In this document: piece after piece, positions 16,231 through 20,663 of the stretch
Numbering within the stretch: the first letter of the stretch is position 1
How the letters are laid out: each line of letters starts with the position of its first letter
Source of the DNA: Propionibacterium ruminifibrarum
GTDB taxonomy: Bacteria > Actinomycetota > Actinomycetes > Propionibacteriales > Propionibacteriaceae
Direction: 5' to 3'
DNA: 32,000 nucleotides
NCBI RefSeq assembly: GCF_900289195.1
Contig: NZ_OMOH01000002.1
Coordinates: 61,206-93,205 of the forward strand
The notes under the pieces: model-generated
Told to the model about the DNA's origin: nothing
Seen by the model: the letters and a program-made list of their open reading frames with translations, nothing else
Databases searched by the model: none
Translations under genes and position numbers: made by a program

Positions 16231-16300
16231 CGTCCACCAGCCAATGCACTGCCGTCGTCCCTCTGCGGACGCCGCGAACTCTGAAAGGGAGCCTGCCCGC

Positions 16301-17833
16301 ATGATGAGAACGTCCACCCCAGCACCTTCACTCACGCGCCGTTCCGTCTTGGCGGCCATGATGGGCACGGCTCTTCTGTCCCCGCTGGTCGCTTGCACCC
16401 GCGGCGGAGGTGACGGCACGAGCGGCGCCCAGAATCCCGGAGACGGCTCTGCGGGCGGTTTGCAGGATCAGCTCGGCGGGCTGGGCGGGAACGCACCCTC
16501 GCTGTCGCCCGAGGAGTACGAGGCCATTGTCGACGGTCTTGCCGAATGGGTGTCCCGCGTCTGGCCTCTCATGGGTTCGGTGTGGCCTGACGCCGACTAC
16601 AACCAGCACCGGATCGTCGCCATGCAGGTGGGTGATGATTTCAAGGCGACGCGGGCCTGGGTGGTCTCCACCGACGGGCACCGAGAGCTCAGGAACGACG
16701 AATACGCCGACATCACCCCGCCCTCCTCCTATGACAAGATCACCTTCGAGGGCTATCCGTCCATCACCTTGAACCTCGGCTCGGCCGTCACCCTCAGCAA
16801 GGGGCAGGGGCAGGATGAGCAGAATGCCTCGTCCGGCACGTCCCCCGCCTCGGCCGGGGCAGCCGGCGATGCGGCCGACCTGACCGACCCGGCCACCTTC
16901 GCCTTCGCCCTCATGACCCATGAGCTGGTGCACTTCTACTACCAGGGCGAGATCAACGTGACCGCCGAGAGCAGCCGCGACACCCCGTACCCGTTCGAGG
17001 TGCGCCCGCGCACCCTGCGCCGGATGCTGCTGCACAGCCTCTACCTGGCGGCGACCGAGCAGAACAAGCAGCAGGATCACCTGGGGCATGCCCGCTACTG
17101 GCTCGACACCTGGAAGAAGGAGGCCGAGCAGGAGGCGCAGGACATCCACCACTACGACATCGCCGAGGGCGTGGCGCGGTACGTCGAGTACATGGCGTTG
17201 TCGATCGAGTCCGACCAGTCCGCCGAGCAGCTGCGCAGTCGCCAGGCGCCTCTGCTCAAGGAGGGCCTGACCGTCGACCTGTCGGTGGACGCCGAGTCCT
17301 ACGCCCTGGGTTTCACCACCGGTGTCCTGCTCGACTCCCGCAAGCCGGGCTGGAAGGACGGCTTCTACGCCGGCGGCACGACCTTGACCGAACTGCTCCT
17401 GGAGGACGTGGCTCCCATTCCCGAAGACGTCGACGAGCAGGTGCAGGCGGAGGTCGACAAGCAGGCCGCGGAGTCCGAGGAGAACACGGGGCCGCAGATC
17501 AAGAAGATCGACTCCGCCGAGGCCGACACCGGCACCGCCTACCTGCGCTTCCTCACATTCGGCGAGATCGCCTACGCCGGCTCGTTCGCGTACAAGGACA
17601 AGGTGGTACTCACCACCACCATCCTGAACGTGAACAACGAGGGTCAGAGTCTTCAAATCTTCGGCACCCCGAGCTTCACCGGCACCGACCGCGAGATCCT
17701 CAACGTCCCGCTGATCGACGCGACCCACCGCTACGACAACGGGGTGCTGACGGTCACCGGCGACGCCATCAACGGGACCGTCAAGGCCGAACGCACCACC
17801 GAGAACGGAAGGGAGGTCTTCATCGTCGAGTAA
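16301..17833 (+). CDS. Tat-signal lipoprotein with an HExxH...EGxAxY motif (putative MA-clan zinc metallopeptidase)
   Basis: ATG 16301 follows GAAAGGGAG. The N-terminus MMRTSTPAPSLTRRSVLAAMMGTALLSPLVAC carries a twin-arginine motif and a lipobox Cys. It also has MTHELVHFYY, and IAEGVARYVEY about 95 aa downstream. Confidence 0.75.
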   Translation: MMRTSTPAPSLTRRSVLAAMMGTALLSPLVACTRGGGDGTSGAQNPGDGSAGGLQDQLGGLGGNAPSLSPEEYEAIVDGLAEWVSRVWPLMGSVWPDADYNQHRIVAMQVGDDFKATRAWVVSTDGHRELRNDEYADITPPSSYDKITFEGYPSITLNLGSAVTLSKGQGQDEQNASSGTSPASAGAAGDAADLTDPATFAFALMTHELVHFYYQGEINVTAESSRDTPYPFEVRPRTLRRMLLHSLYLAATEQNKQQDHLGHARYWLDTWKKEAEQEAQDIHHYDIAEGVARYVEYMALSIESDQSAEQLRSRQAPLLKEGLTVDLSVDAESYALGFTTGVLLDSRKPGWKDGFYAGGTTLTELLLEDVAPIPEDVDEQVQAEVDKQAAESEENTGPQIKKIDSAEADTGTAYLRFLTFGEIAYAGSFAYKDKVVLTTTILNVNNEGQSLQIFGTPSFTGTDREILNVPLIDATHRYDNGVLTVTGDAINGTVKAERTTENGREVFIVE

Positions 17834-17891: not shown

Positions 17892-18343
17892 GGCCATGCC
17901 GTCCTCGGGAGTGGGAGAACCCGGTTGGCCCGCCCGCGCGTCGACGCGGGCCGCGCATCGCTCCGACGCTGCCTCGTGGCGGCGAGCACTGGGGCATGTC
18001 GGCCAGGATGATGATCCCACTGCCAGTCCGGGGACCTGCACGATGGCGTTCGGCGCGTTCACTGCCTCCTTCGAACCCGGAACGATTCAGCCGGGCTGAC
18101 ATCTTCCGGGGCTCGGGGTGTCATGACTCAAGGTGCATGCTGTACGGCTACCCCGCATGCACCCCTTCACGACACGCACATCCCCTCGCCATCTCGCCGA
18201 TCCCCCGGGCTTTTTCGCCCTCAATCCCCGGGAAAGATTCACTGTGTGCATCGCATTCGGCAACGGATAATTCAGATGCAGATCCACCGTGGAAACGACC
18301 CCAGGGGCACCTGCACTGACGCTGAGCCGAGGACCAGCACGGC

Positions 18344-18853
18344 TCAGTCGCCGTGCTCCTGCTCGCGCTTGCGCCGGTAGTTCTCACAACGACGGGCATT
18401 GCGCTCCTGCCGCTTCAACTCCGCCTCATAACCCGTGCGCAGCCAGTCCGGGATGAACTCATCATCACGCGGATAGCGCTTCAACTCATTCCAGCAATCC
18501 CCAGGGCCGGGGCGTATGTCGCCGGAAGCCTGAGTGAATACAGGCTCGCGCATCCAGTCGCACTCCTGGCGCAGCACCCCGTCAGCGGCAGCCATCCACA
18601 AACGACACCACGTCCACGCACCACGATCAGGCAACGCCTGCGCAGTGCGAAGATCCCCCTGCGGGGAACCCAGCTCCCACGGGATCCTCGACCACTCTTT
18701 GACCCCGTCGCGCATGAGCCAAGCGACATTATCCTGTACGCGTCCAATGCCGTTGACCTCTATGTGAGCGCTGTCCGCACCGGTCTCGTCCAACCACACC
18801 CGAAACTCACGTTCCACGCGCTCCAGTAGTTCGTCTGGGTCTAACTGCCTCAT
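18344..18853 (-). CDS. Hypothetical Trp-rich protein (169 aa), immunity-protein-like
   Basis: GAGGAG lies 8 nt upstream of ATG 18853. The sequence is MRQLDPDELLERVEREF..., with GAWTWCRLWMAAADGVLRQECDW in the second half and a basic K/R/E-rich tail (KRQERNARRCENYRRKREQEHGD). Similarity to YezG/DUF600-type immunity proteins is only an impression. Confidence 0.65.
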   Translation of the reverse strand: MRQLDPDELLERVEREFRVWLDETGADSAHIEVNGIGRVQDNVAWLMRDGVKEWSRIPWELGSPQGDLRTAQALPDRGAWTWCRLWMAAADGVLRQECDWMREPVFTQASGDIRPGPGDCWNELKRYPRDDEFIPDWLRTGYEAELKRQERNARRCENYRRKREQEHGD

Positions 18854-18882
18854 CGCTCACGCTCCTCACTACGACTATATTG

Positions 18883-19146
18883 CTACGGATTGATGTTATT
18901 GAAGTTTCGAGACCGCCCTACGCCGTTCTCATCCACCCACTTGGCTTCGAGCTGAGTTGGTACTCGATCACTCGGGTTGACGTCACTGAGGCGGTTGACG
19001 GAGCCGGCGCTGGCTGGTGGGCCGTCGTACTCGATGCGGATGTCGATGTTCCTGTAGTTGTCAGGGTTAGCGGCGATCTGGTCCTCGAACTTCTCATAGC
19101 TATCCGAGTGGGCGTCGTTCGTTCCACGGTTGAGGTCCTTGTGCAT
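18883..19146 (-). CDS. Small ORF (87 aa from the ATG), orphan toxin C-terminal-module-like
   Basis: There is a strong G/C third-position bias in this frame despite AT-richer DNA. GAGG lies 5 nt upstream of ATG 19146. The frame is open up to 19215, adding FATQPPPQPAPTTAGPEDPNEVP directly after the TAG of the upstream gene. The sequence is N/D-rich with no recognised motif. Confidence 0.5.
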   Translation of the reverse strand: MHKDLNRGTNDAHSDSYEKFEDQIAANPDNYRNIDIRIEYDGPPASAGSVNRLSDVNPSDRVPTQLEAKWVDENGVGRSRNFNNINP

Positions 19147-19215
19147 GGGGACCTCGTTGGGGTCCTCGGGCCCAGCCGTTGTTGGTGCGGGTTGTGGCGG
19201 GGGCTGAGTGGCGAA

Positions 19216-19818
19216 CTACGCCTCCTCCTCTTCTTCCTCGAAGTAGCGGCGTTCGGCCTCGGCCGCACGGTTGGCGGCAGGCGAGTCCACGGTGGCGCTG
19301 AGGACTCGCCCGACGGCGCCGAGTTGAAGTGAGGCTCCGCTCGGCAGGGTCCACGTGGTGGACTCCTGGGGGCCGTTGCGCCCCTGGGAGTGCTTGGTGG
19401 TGCCGGCGCCGTACAAGTCAGTCAGCACTTGGACGTACTGGGTGTATGCCTGGCGCACCAGATCAGGCGCTTCCGGCGGCGTACTGGCCTTAGGAATACG
19501 CGAAGCCAATTCCATGTGAAAGGAATTTGCCTGACCTTTGAGATCTATGAAGTATGCGTCTTTTCCACCCAGATCGTGACCGGTAGTAAACATCATCTCG
19601 TCTGTTGGTGACGGCTGCCAGCCGAGACGGTCACGCAACTCCAGACCCTCCTGGACACTCATAGGCCAATCATGCTCCAACCACAGCCGGATCACCGGCA
19701 CACCCACCTCGGGCGGAACCACCCGAAAGGTAGTGCCGCCCGGAAGTCCAAGCTCGTATGAAATACCGTCATTCTCCTGCTTGTCATCACTCACACGATC
19801 ACTCCAGACCACTAACAT
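19216..19818 (-). CDS. Hypothetical protein, paralog B of a tandem pair (about 200 aa)
   Basis: It shares RVVPPEVGVPVIR.WLEHDWPM and STTWTLP..AS.Q.G..G.VLS...DSP.AN with the upstream gene and has the acidic tail EEEEEEA. The start is uncertain: ATG 19818 abuts AGGAGG, and GTG 19812 has better spacing. Confidence 0.72.
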   Translation of the reverse strand: MLVVWSDRVSDDKQENDGISYELGLPGGTTFRVVPPEVGVPVIRLWLEHDWPMSVQEGLELRDRLGWQPSPTDEMMFTTGHDLGGKDAYFIDLKGQANSFHMELASRIPKASTPPEAPDLVRQAYTQYVQVLTDLYGAGTTKHSQGRNGPQESTTWTLPSGASLQLGAVGRVLSATVDSPAANRAAEAERRYFEEEEEEA

Positions 19819-19848
19819 CCTCCTACGAGACCGGATCGCCAGGAGCAC

Positions 19849-20442
19849 CTACTCGTCCCCGTCCTCTTCTGCAGCCTCCCACTCCAGCAACTCCGCCTCA
19901 GCCGCAGCCGCATAATTCGCATCAGGAGAATCGATGTCGCAGCTCAGCACACTTCCGATCGTACCGACTTGAACTGATGCGTGATTCGGTAGTGTCCAAG
20001 TGGTCGAATCTACATAACCACTCCGGGTTTTACTTCGCGACACCTCACCTTCACCGTACAAGCCGGACAACCTGCTGGTGTAAGCAACGTATGCCGCATG
20101 CGTCAGCGGTGTGGTGTATACATCAAGCTCTATTGGCGCATACGACGCCAAGCTGATACGAAATGAGTTCACTCTATTCTTGATGATGGTGATTGACGCG
20201 TCCTTGGGCATACCCGAGCCGAGGTTGGTGGTGACCAGTGTTTCCTTCCTCGGCGAAGGCGTCCAGCCGAGTTCGTCGCGCAGCGCAAGCGCCTGCTGGG
20301 CGGTCATGGGCCAGTCGTGTTCAAGCCACTTGCGGATGACGGGTACCCCGACCTCTGGTGGGACCACCCGGTAGACGGTGCCATCGGGAAGCTCGCGCTC
20401 GTAGGTGGGGTCCGTGTGTTGGCTCCTGGTGCCGTCGGTCAT
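19849..20442 (-). CDS. Hypothetical protein, paralog A of a tandem pair (197 aa)
   Basis: ATG 20442 is preceded by AGGAG at a 6-nt spacing. It has the same conserved N- and C-terminal blocks as paralog B and the acidic tail EAAEEDGDE. Confidence 0.78.
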   Translation of the reverse strand: MTDGTRSQHTDPTYERELPDGTVYRVVPPEVGVPVIRKWLEHDWPMTAQQALALRDELGWTPSPRKETLVTTNLGSGMPKDASITIIKNRVNSFRISLASYAPIELDVYTTPLTHAAYVAYTSRLSGLYGEGEVSRSKTRSGYVDSTTWTLPNHASVQVGTIGSVLSCDIDSPDANYAAAAEAELLEWEAAEEDGDE

Positions 20443-20663
20443 CGCGTGCTCCTGGCCGGTGCCCGGTCGTTGGCCTGTTCACGTACATGGTAGGCGAGGT
20501 GTGTGACATCAATCTGCGCGCCGTGGGGAGTCGTCGTTCGCTCTACGGCGTGGGGCTGCGGACTCTGGGCGCGGATCTCACCGACTCTCATCACGTCCCT
20601 GAAGCATCGGCCGCGGACCCCAACCGTGGGTCCTGGGGAGTCAACACCGCTGCTCATCCAAGC

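Follow-up and report, generated by a model that had tools for sequence, protein, structure and literature searches.

An 87-residue reading frame in Propionibacterium ruminifibrarum as the probable displaced tip of an EsaD-like nuclease toxin, carried with an EsaG-like immunity gene

We wanted to understand what a short open reading frame (ORF) of 87 amino acids (aa) represents in a 32,000-nucleotide (nt) stretch of Propionibacterium ruminifibrarum DNA (contig NZ_OMOH01000002.1, positions 61,206 to 93,205; hereafter, the window), in which it lies third among four closely packed ORFs on the minus strand, namely DUF6301 paralog A, DUF6301 paralog B, the 87-aa ORF itself and an ORF of 169 aa. An original prediction, made from the letters of the window, had taken the 87-aa ORF for a C-terminal toxin domain left behind with its cognate immunity gene. 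The analysis described below indicates that window positions 19173-18341 (minus strand) are, with high probability, an orphan unit of tip and immunity gene derived from a polymorphic DNase toxin system of Actinomyces, EsaD-like and secreted by the type VII route, where the tip is the 3' remnant of the toxin gene. The island as a whole probably consists of two orphan immunity genes for another toxin (toxin X), followed by one nuclease-toxin tip and immunity unit. The coordinates of all features are given in Table 1.

The 110-residue translation obtained by extending the 87-aa ORF upstream had no match in Pfam, NCBIfam and PADLOC scans, and a word-indexed protein search with the tip returned only the tip itself and one allele 84% identical to it. 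An exhaustive phmmer search of 1.84 billion representative proteins with the 110-residue translation returned 21 matches (E 2e-19 to 8e-4). Two of these, P0016 and P0020, are long repeat proteins lacking the nuclease motif and were treated as spurious, and the 19 retained family members (E 2e-19 to 1e-4) share the motif GGH..G..FGGPPE(E/D)INVVPM...VN(Q/R). The search thereby recovered the larger toxins that the original prediction had expected to carry this sequence at their C terminus: the tip matches the C-terminal part of proteins of 129-553 aa, at the extreme C terminus in those of 181, 221, 238, 272 and 553 aa, and all 10 longer matches tested contain PF13930 (Endonuclea_NS_2) above the gathering threshold, with E values down to 7e-16. 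A profile of the family also matches structures of the nuclease domain of Staphylococcus aureus EsaD (EssD), with E 4.7e-9 for 8GUO_B and 1.1e-7 for 8GUN_A. In EsaD, H528 is the catalytic His and N551 is a Mg2+ ligand (PMC9616950).

The 87-aa ORF is homologous to the last ~95 residues of PF13930 domains, which comprise ~190 residues. The phmmer alignments begin at query residue 14-16, upstream of the ATG, and the homology starts 9 codons 5' of the ATG, where GPEDPNEVPM is aligned with GGPPEDINVVPM; in alignment A1, PEDPNEVPMHKDLN of the window pairs with PE(E/D)INVVPM...VN. The initiator Met of the 87-aa ORF is the conserved Met of the nuclease motif, and its Asn-6 (MHKDLN) aligns with the VN(Q/R) column and with N551 of EsaD. 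Judged as a member of PF13930, the tip has the homology (through its relatives) and the Mg-binding Asn, and it lacks the catalytic GGH His, equivalent to H528 of EsaD, as well as a complete domain. Its homology begins 8-10 residues past the His position, and ~90 N-terminal residues, including strands β1-5, are gone, the region that precedes GGH in the toxins being replaced in the window by FATQPPPQPAPTTA. With that much of the PF13930 domain missing, the idea that the ORF is a self-contained C-terminal toxin domain had to be abandoned. Structure prediction, which had been proposed as a route to the identity of the ORF, was informative only for its 169-aa partner (see below), as the AlphaFold2 (AF2) model of the 110-residue fragment was poor (predicted local distance difference test score (pLDDT) 63), with the part encoded by the 14-codon spacer disordered, and Foldseek found no match to it at E <= 0.001. 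Judging by its sequence, the 87-aa ORF appears to be the leftover C-terminal part of an EsaD-like nuclease toxin from which the catalytic His has been lost.

The point at which the toxin gene was cut can be read from L019, a metagenome-assembled genome (MAG) of a related Actinomyces. Here, an intact toxin gene (it runs off the contig) has a 3' end 74% identical to the window tip and is directly followed by an immunity gene 89% identical to that of the window. DNA homology between L019 and the window, at 84% identity, covers 19173-18341 and nowhere else, and extends from GG(G/C) CCC GAG GAC to 3 nt beyond the stop codon of the 169-aa gene. The intact gene of L019 reads GGT GGC CAT ATA GCT GGT TCG CAG AGC GGA GGG GGC CCC GAG GAC CTC AAC GAG GTC CCC ATG CAC, and the window reads CCA ACA ACG GCT GGG CCC GAG GAC CCC AAC GAG GTC CCC ATG CAC. 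The 14 spacer codons 5' of the homology have no homologue in any toxin or locus compared (by phmmer, alignment A1 or DNA comparison), and in full-length toxins the junction falls in the middle of the nuclease domain. In the stretch that had been described as a Pro/Thr-rich linker, the last 9 codons (GPEDPNEVP) belong to the conserved nuclease core and the first 14 are an unrelated spacer, so that the stretch does not form a linker and the ORF falls short of a complete toxin domain. Likewise, the GAGG located 5 nt 5' of the ATG is present as described but is not an evolved start site; because the same codons stand in the intact L019 gene, GAGG-N5-ATG represents inherited internal toxin codons (N-E-V-P-M). 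When the DNA of more distant units is compared with the window, similarity is confined to two blocks, one in mid-tip and one within the 3' half of the immunity gene. Between these conserved blocks lies a hypervariable core made up of the 3' end of the tip and the 5' part of the immunity gene, an arrangement that recalls the homology blocks behind esaG recombination (PMC9484751).

The frame in which the ORF lies had also been thought telling. As had been observed, the TAG of paralog B (19218..19216) shares its frame with the 87-aa ORF, and the 23 codons between them (FATQPPPQPAPTTAGPEDPNEVP) are stop-free. The opening of the frame after the upstream stop is real, but it is not a special feature: at the stop frequency of the window (0.0176 per triplet), 71% of its 878 ATGs have at least 23 stop-free upstream codons, the chance of sharing a frame with the upstream TAG is roughly 1-in-4, and 14 open codons are expected by chance with a probability of 0.78. 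The open frame after the upstream stop is no more than chance, and it is the homology that goes beyond chance. The reported G/C bias of third codon positions was reproduced, and the G+C content of 0.57/0.39/0.75 at codon positions 1/2/3 of the 87-aa frame resembles that of coding DNA.

The 169-aa protein encoded next had no Pfam or NCBIfam match at E <= 1 and none in PADLOC, and a profile of its family (alignment A2) matched nothing among PDB sequences at E <= 10. Its 34 homologues are all from Actinomyces and often occur several to a contig or in tandem. Alignment A2 has three regions, which are a variable N-terminal part of ~70 residues, an invariant core (GAWTWCxLWM...VLHQECDWMREP, with DWMREP) and a basic C-terminal helix. 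The AF2 model of the protein (pLDDT 84) gave exactly six Foldseek matches against the PDB at E <= 0.001, all of them to EsaG or to the DUF600 protein BH3703; those to EsaG (8GUO_A and 8GUP_A) have E values of 3.6e-5 and 4.9e-5, probability 1.0 and template modeling (TM) scores of 0.44-0.46. With respect to the EsaG/DUF600 (Imm36) family, the 169-aa protein therefore falls outside the sequence model and shares the BH3703/EsaG-like fold. Its context is also that of the family, as its homologues are encoded directly 3' of Endonuclea_NS_2 toxins, often as tandem paralogues with conserved blocks. Because the tip is homologous to EsaD and the fold of its partner matches EsaG/DUF600, the two independently point to an EsaD/EsaG pair. 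At the level of the fold, the 169-aa protein is thus a predicted EsaG-like immunity protein, and synteny and fold together suggest that it binds and neutralizes its cognate nuclease. We also noted that a shorter member of the immunity family (146 aa, ~30% identical), lacking the basic C-terminal helix, ends most arrays of the relatives described below (L005, L006 and L021-L023), and that the next gene in L005 and L006 encodes a MamF/MmsF-like membrane protein.

In related genomes, the tip is found in its full-length setting. Toxins of 746-1103 aa ending in tip-homologous sequence are encoded in L005, L006, L021-23, L025 and L026, and the 553-aa protein P0019 combines a WXG100-like N terminus with a nuclease C terminus. 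Overall, tip homologues form the C termini of proteins of 553-1103 aa with WXG100-like N termini, encoded near ESAT-6-like genes and an EccC-type FtsK/SpoIIIE ATPase. The small cognate-looking gene that had been pointed out 29 nt after the 87-aa ORF has its counterpart here, since an immunity homologue lies directly downstream of every full-length toxin examined and the toxin-then-immunity spacing is close in all related loci. In L005 (Actinomyces sp. CP027862), a WXG-like gene, an ESAT6-like gene, DUF6507 and a gene for an 808-aa toxin with a C-terminal Endonuclea_NS_2 domain are followed by the array imm(167)-tip(101)-imm(170)-tip(100)-imm(168)-tip(100)-imm(182), with a 1333-aa EccC-type FtsK/SpoIIIE ATPase nearby. 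All three tips of this array begin ...GVPPEDINVVPM, with the same breakpoint as in the window. In L006, a sister strain of L005 at 98% identity, one unit is missing, the 812-aa toxin has at its end the sequence that closes orphan tip 1 of L005, and the same immunity gene comes directly after it. Farther downstream in L006, another unit is absent between immunity paralogues. We further observed that the three orphan tips of L005 (9647-11762) have an identical 5' stretch, VVAADERLGVPPEDINVVPMKESVNGNHPGSFYELE, which differs from the main toxin at the same positions, suggesting that unequal crossing-over or gene conversion has homogenized these tips separately from the expressed copy.

Across the fetched loci, we mapped 21 tip and immunity units, including 13 orphans. 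GGH is absent from 12 of the 13 orphans, the exception being a longer orphan of A. naeslundii, and the orphans start at tip position 1, 17-18, 25 or 48, with no conserved start. The identity of the last 35 tip residues correlates with that of the first 75 immunity residues over the 21 units (Mantel r 0.41, p 2e-4, uncorrected for phylogeny). Isolated copies consisting of a further-truncated tip and an immunity gene 82-85% identical to that of the window are present in P. australiense (L020 4583-5507, NZ_RCIV01000003.1) and in a related metagenomic contig (L004 2390-3126), which suggests that the cassette has spread horizontally as part of immunity islands, with transfer between families. The P. 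australiense cassette adjoins an AAA ATPase gene and an ORF (…LGFKLPESYRTLLLAANGW…). Judging from its sequence by eye, the latter may encode an SMI1/KNR4-type immunity protein. Several features of a polymorphic-toxin cassette are thus found, i.e. homology to the C terminus of full toxins with a trafficking domain, the order, gap and co-varying partner, and evidence of recombination. A full-length toxin adjoins the units in relatives L005, L006, L021 and L026 and is absent beside the cassette in the window, as it is beside the likewise isolated units of L020 and L004. The surroundings of a type VII secretion system (T7SS) substrate, with WXG100/ESAT-6-like genes and an EccC/EssC-type ATPase, are seen near the array in L005 and are absent from the window. 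The homology to the C termini of large toxins and the tip and immunity arrays downstream of full toxins bear out the view that the locus is an orphan toxin-CT (C-terminal)/immunity remnant.

The same island, with an identical 87-aa ORF and the same flanks, occurs in at least 8 further contigs (rumen-type metagenomes and MAGs), and the ORF is intact in all 16 contigs that carry it and in a diverged allele, L001. In L001, a sister strain represented by three independent sequencing runs, the tip ORF is intact and the immunity gene has a 1-nt deletion and a stop codon, which argues that the tip is harmless. Compared with L001, the 87-aa ORF has a ratio of nonsynonymous to synonymous substitution rates (dN/dS) of ~0.2, with dS 0.42. 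We considered this ratio as a sign of selection in place and rejected it, because the divergence is mosaic, with a single difference across 178 nt upstream, 21% divergence over the final 120 nt of the tip, ~12% in the 5' part of the immunity gene and ~4% downstream. Such a pattern points to alleles that had evolved inside working toxins and were probably brought in by recombination. Intact copies of paralog B occur in the window and in L012 (GCA_040307615.1), 7 of 8 contigs that are otherwise ~99.7% identical (L008-L015) have lost 1 nt of it at window position 19404, and the more distant L001 has an internal deletion of ~420 bp. Paralog B is thus on its way to being lost, whereas paralog A, the tip and the immunity gene remain intact.

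The two DUF6301 genes in front of the tip have their closest homologues in A. succiniciruminis and A. ruminicola. In other Actinomyces, DUF6301 genes lie directly 3' of genes for WXG100_2-like proteins of 944 and 991 aa (L016 7024-10636 and L018 6307-10609), which are preceded by a small EspC/WXG-like gene and whose N-terminal ~230 residues are 39% identical to the N terminus of the nuclease toxin P0019 (E 2e-43). The C-terminal domain of the DUF6301-associated toxin had no match in the PDB or Pfam, and a literature search found no mention of DUF6301. Because these genes follow proteins that share the toxin N terminus, DUF6301 is most likely the immunity family of a second, uncharacterized T7SS toxin domain, and paralogs A and B are probably orphan immunity genes for this different T7SS toxin.

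Other explanations of the 87-aa ORF were weighed against this evidence. That it is a complete foreign toxin domain behind a Pro/Thr-rich linker, potentially toxic from its internal ATG and checked by the 169-aa partner, would account for the toxin-then-immunity order with its 29-nt gap, the homologues at the C termini of larger proteins and the GAGG-N5-ATG. However, the homology covers only the last ~95 of ~190 nuclease-domain residues, the GGH His and strands β1-5 are gone, the 14 P/T-rich codons have no counterpart in full-length toxins (where the position is mid-domain), L001 keeps the ORF beside a dead immunity gene, and the C-terminal fragment of EsaD, even with its His-Me finger, is inactive alone yet binds EsaG (PMC9616950); we regard this explanation as very improbable. 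For the same reasons (the loss of the catalytic His and half of the fold, the inactivity of the EsaD fragment alone and the broken immunity gene of L001), the tip is unlikely to be toxic if expressed. A genuine translated small protein, which would act as a decoy or chaperone binding the immunity protein or as a C-terminal half reassembling in trans, would agree with the dN/dS of ~0.2, with the intact ORF in 16 of 16 contigs and the L001 allele, with the many similar stand-alone fragments of 77-132 aa in databases (of which P0011 begins at the same conserved Met) and with the finding that the EsaD fragments NFL and CFL both bind EsaG and reassemble into active enzyme in vitro (PMC9616950). It is nevertheless improbable in our judgment, as the start codon and "ribosome-binding site" are inherited internal toxin codons, orphan tips elsewhere start at four different places (positions 1, 17-18, 25 and 48), the low dN/dS is explained by the mosaic import of alleles evolved in functional toxins, and the fragment is poorly modeled (pLDDT 63).

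We give next to no credence to the possibility that paralog B is, or once was, extended at its C terminus by the tip, with translation passing across the in-frame TAG. Although the 23 codons after the TAG are stop-free, such a stretch is expected by chance, the tip is unchanged where paralog B is frameshifted (7 of 8 sister contigs) or internally deleted (L001), no DUF6301-nuclease fusion exists among the homologues, and a fusion of immunity protein and toxin in that order is without precedent in the loci examined. It seems equally hard to believe that the ORF arose by chance or is non-coding DNA between two genes. High-GC genomes are rich in spurious ORFs, and the fragment has no direct family match, but chance would not produce the phmmer E values of 2e-19 to 1e-4 against 19 family members, the third-position G+C of 0.75 compared with 0.57 and 0.39 at positions 1 and 2, or the 84% DNA identity to an intact toxin gene across the whole ORF. 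Some observations do weigh against a displaced tip and immunity cassette. The window contains neither a full-length toxin nor T7SS genes, so a role as a recombination reservoir is unproven in this genome. The tip belongs to its family transitively, via homologues, having no direct Pfam, NCBIfam or PADLOC match, and the similarity of the 169-aa protein to EsaG is at the level of the fold, with a modest TM-score and no sequence signal. The dN/dS of ~0.2 could reflect selection acting on the 87-aa ORF where it stands. At least 9 contigs carry the ORF intact and with identical sequence, and it has a usable GAGG-N5-ATG, so its translation is possible. Finally, the Mantel test of tip and immunity sequences takes no account of phylogeny.

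On balance, we favor the displaced cassette, and we propose how it would have arisen, building on the homology, breakpoint, His loss, immunity fold, cassette boundaries, arrays and gain and loss of units in relatives described above. In related genomes, the toxin comprises a WXG100-like N terminus, a long linker and a C-terminal Endonuclea_NS_2 domain, and its gene is followed by an EsaG-like immunity gene for 167-182 aa and often by alternating tip and immunity units. Recombination would occur inside or just after the ββα-metal motif (...GGH...GGPPEDINVVPM...N), the most conserved part of the nuclease, and the conserved 3' blocks of the immunity genes would serve as the second exchange point. 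As a result, only the C-terminal ~70-95 toxin residues and the matching immunity gene would be swapped or displaced. By homology, the swapped part would correspond to helix αB and strands β6-8, which make up the immunity-binding "C-terminal fragment" of EsaD. The window would then hold one displaced unit, far from a toxin gene and behind two DUF6301 genes. The 169-aa protein would presumably protect the cell from this nuclease allele when it is delivered by neighbors, and this would be the function for which the island is selected. The 87-aa ORF would be a non-toxic passenger, whose likely roles are only those of a homology arm or silent cassette for tip switching, or of a translated leader coupling into the immunity gene. 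A bolder proposal, which we find rather doubtful, is that tips are working parts of specificity switching, in which recombination in the active-site motif exchanges the immunity-binding subdomain together with the immunity gene and leaves the catalytic N-terminal half constant, that isolated units such as those of the window and P. australiense are portable modules across actinobacterial families, and, as an extension, that a translated 87-aa product binds the immunity protein or reassembles with the N-terminal half.

Table 1. Features of the island (window positions) and the short terminal immunity members of related arrays (positions in the locus named)
Feature	Position	Strand	Remarks
DUF6301 paralog A	19849..20442	-	First ORF in the same-strand cluster; Pfam PF19818, E 3e-24; in all sister contigs; synteny with toxins in other genomes
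DUF6301 paralog B	19216..19848	-	Pfam PF19818, E 5e-27; frameshifted or deleted in most sister strains, intact in the window
Spacer, 14 in-frame stop-free codons (FATQPPPQPAPTTA)	19174..19215	-	Non-homologous; between the paralog B TAG and the toxin remnant
Putative orphan toxin tip, 3' remnant of an Endonuclea_NS_2 (EsaD-like) nuclease gene	18883..19173	-	GPEDPNEVPM to stop codon; phmmer, alignment A1, L019 DNA homology
Annotated 87-aa ORF (inside the tip)	18883..19146	-	Starts at ATG 19146
29-nt spacer, tip to immunity gene	18854..18882	-	GGAG Shine-Dalgarno-like motif before ATG; read from the sequence
Predicted immunity gene (169 aa)	18344..18853	-	EsaG/DUF600-like fold; homologues, alignment A2, AF2, Foldseek
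Low-G+C island	18000..20450	.	Composition profile; Pfam on neighbors
146-aa-type terminal member, L005	12842-13282		
146-aa-type terminal member, L006	11933-12373		
146-aa-type terminal member, L021	6903-7265		
146-aa-type terminal member, L022	5989-6351		
146-aa-type terminal member, L023	5742-6176		

The four ORFs of the island are probably co-transcribed. The island has a G+C content of 0.56-0.65, compared with ~0.68 in its flanks, and third-position G+C is 0.68-0.75 in its four ORFs and 0.85-0.94 in flanking genes, a composition that would fit acquisition from elsewhere. The insertion site has a metallophosphoesterase gene on one side and a 529-aa gene of no known family on the other, in a window otherwise occupied by housekeeping genes (lepA, a hemN-like radical SAM gene, the hrcA, dnaJ and rsmE-like ORFs, phoH, era and leuA). 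No repeats, tRNA-like sequences or mobile-element signatures were found at the edges of the island, and promoter and terminator scans, Rfam and a repeat search around it gave nothing informative. No WXG gene, toxin N-terminal domain, EccC-type ATPase or other T7SS gene was found in the 32-kb window, nor was any further immunity or toxin remnant in the 500-nt gap downstream of the island. The 529-aa ORF (window 16244-17833, plus strand; called as 559 aa in sister contigs) is convergent with the island. It has a lipoprotein-like N terminus and a HELVH (HExxH) motif, with no match in Pfam, NCBIfam or PADLOC, and may from these features be an uncharacterized secreted metalloprotease.

These results propose functions for three unannotated families of rumen and oral Actinomyces, with the 87-aa ORFs as nuclease-toxin tips, the 169-aa family as EsaG-like immunity proteins and DUF6301 as a likely immunity family. 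They also indicate that antagonism of the EsaD/EsaG type, known from work on Firmicutes, exists in diversified form in Actinomycetaceae, in an ESX-like export context, and the position of the breakpoints, within the catalytic motif, hints at where in the nuclease the specificity for immunity resides. For annotation, such small ORFs are better flagged as toxin remnants than as hypothetical proteins or toxins.

The relic is of a kind already familiar from bacterial toxin loci. The cassette shares its toxin-then-immunity order with orphan cdiA-CT/cdiI and rhs-CT/rhsI modules and with "solo toxin cassettes" (Zhang et al. 2012, PMC3482391), and it can also be likened to the orphan CT/immunity modules of LXG systems. 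Like these orphan CT modules, it is a 5'-truncated toxin 3' end without a trafficking domain or proper start, found downstream of full toxins in relatives, and such modules are thought to have been displaced by, or to be available for, recombination that changes the toxin end and the immunity gene. Classical orphan CTs usually contain the toxin domain in full, joined at a conserved pre-toxin motif (VENN or PxxxxDPxGL). Here, by contrast, the junction falls within the catalytic domain itself, past the catalytic His and either ahead of the Mg-binding Asn or immediately beyond it, so that the orphan would encode only the immunity-binding C-terminal subdomain and would not be toxic by itself; unlike those modules, moreover, the window cassette is isolated from any toxin locus. 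DUF600 (Imm36), with its BH3703-like fold, has NucA-type toxins as its main partners, in Actinobacteria too, and poly-immunity loci are, like the island, same-strand and closely spaced clusters of different immunity genes without a toxin (PMC3482391). The window immunity protein differs from Imm36 in lying outside the DUF600 Pfam model, and the island differs from poly-immunity loci, which by definition are never interrupted by toxin cassettes (PMC3482391), in holding one toxin remnant.

The closest parallel is EsaD/EsaG (EssD/EssI) of the S. aureus T7SSb (PMC9616950; PMC9484751). The toxin family is the same (PF13930), with the GGH His and the Asn kept in full-length relatives, and the immunity protein has the EsaG/DUF600 fold. 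Both systems have strings of non-identical immunity paralogues that share homology blocks, gain and lose units by homologous recombination, and leave orphan immunity genes in genomes without the toxin. They differ in that the present system is actinobacterial, its relatives lying in an ESX/T7SSa-like context (ESAT-6-like genes, DUF6507 and an EccC-type FtsK/SpoIIIE ATPase), and in that the toxins of these relatives have a WXG100-like N terminus, whereas EsaD is exported with EsaE and small partner proteins. Further, the 169-aa protein has no detectable sequence similarity to DUF600, unlike EsaG, and the arrays of the relatives interleave truncated toxin tips, whereas esaG arrays have been described as containing immunity genes only. 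The ESX-like actinobacterial context, the breakpoints inside the active-site motif and the P. australiense immunity gene with its decayed tip are the less usual aspects of a system that is otherwise like EsaD/EsaG.

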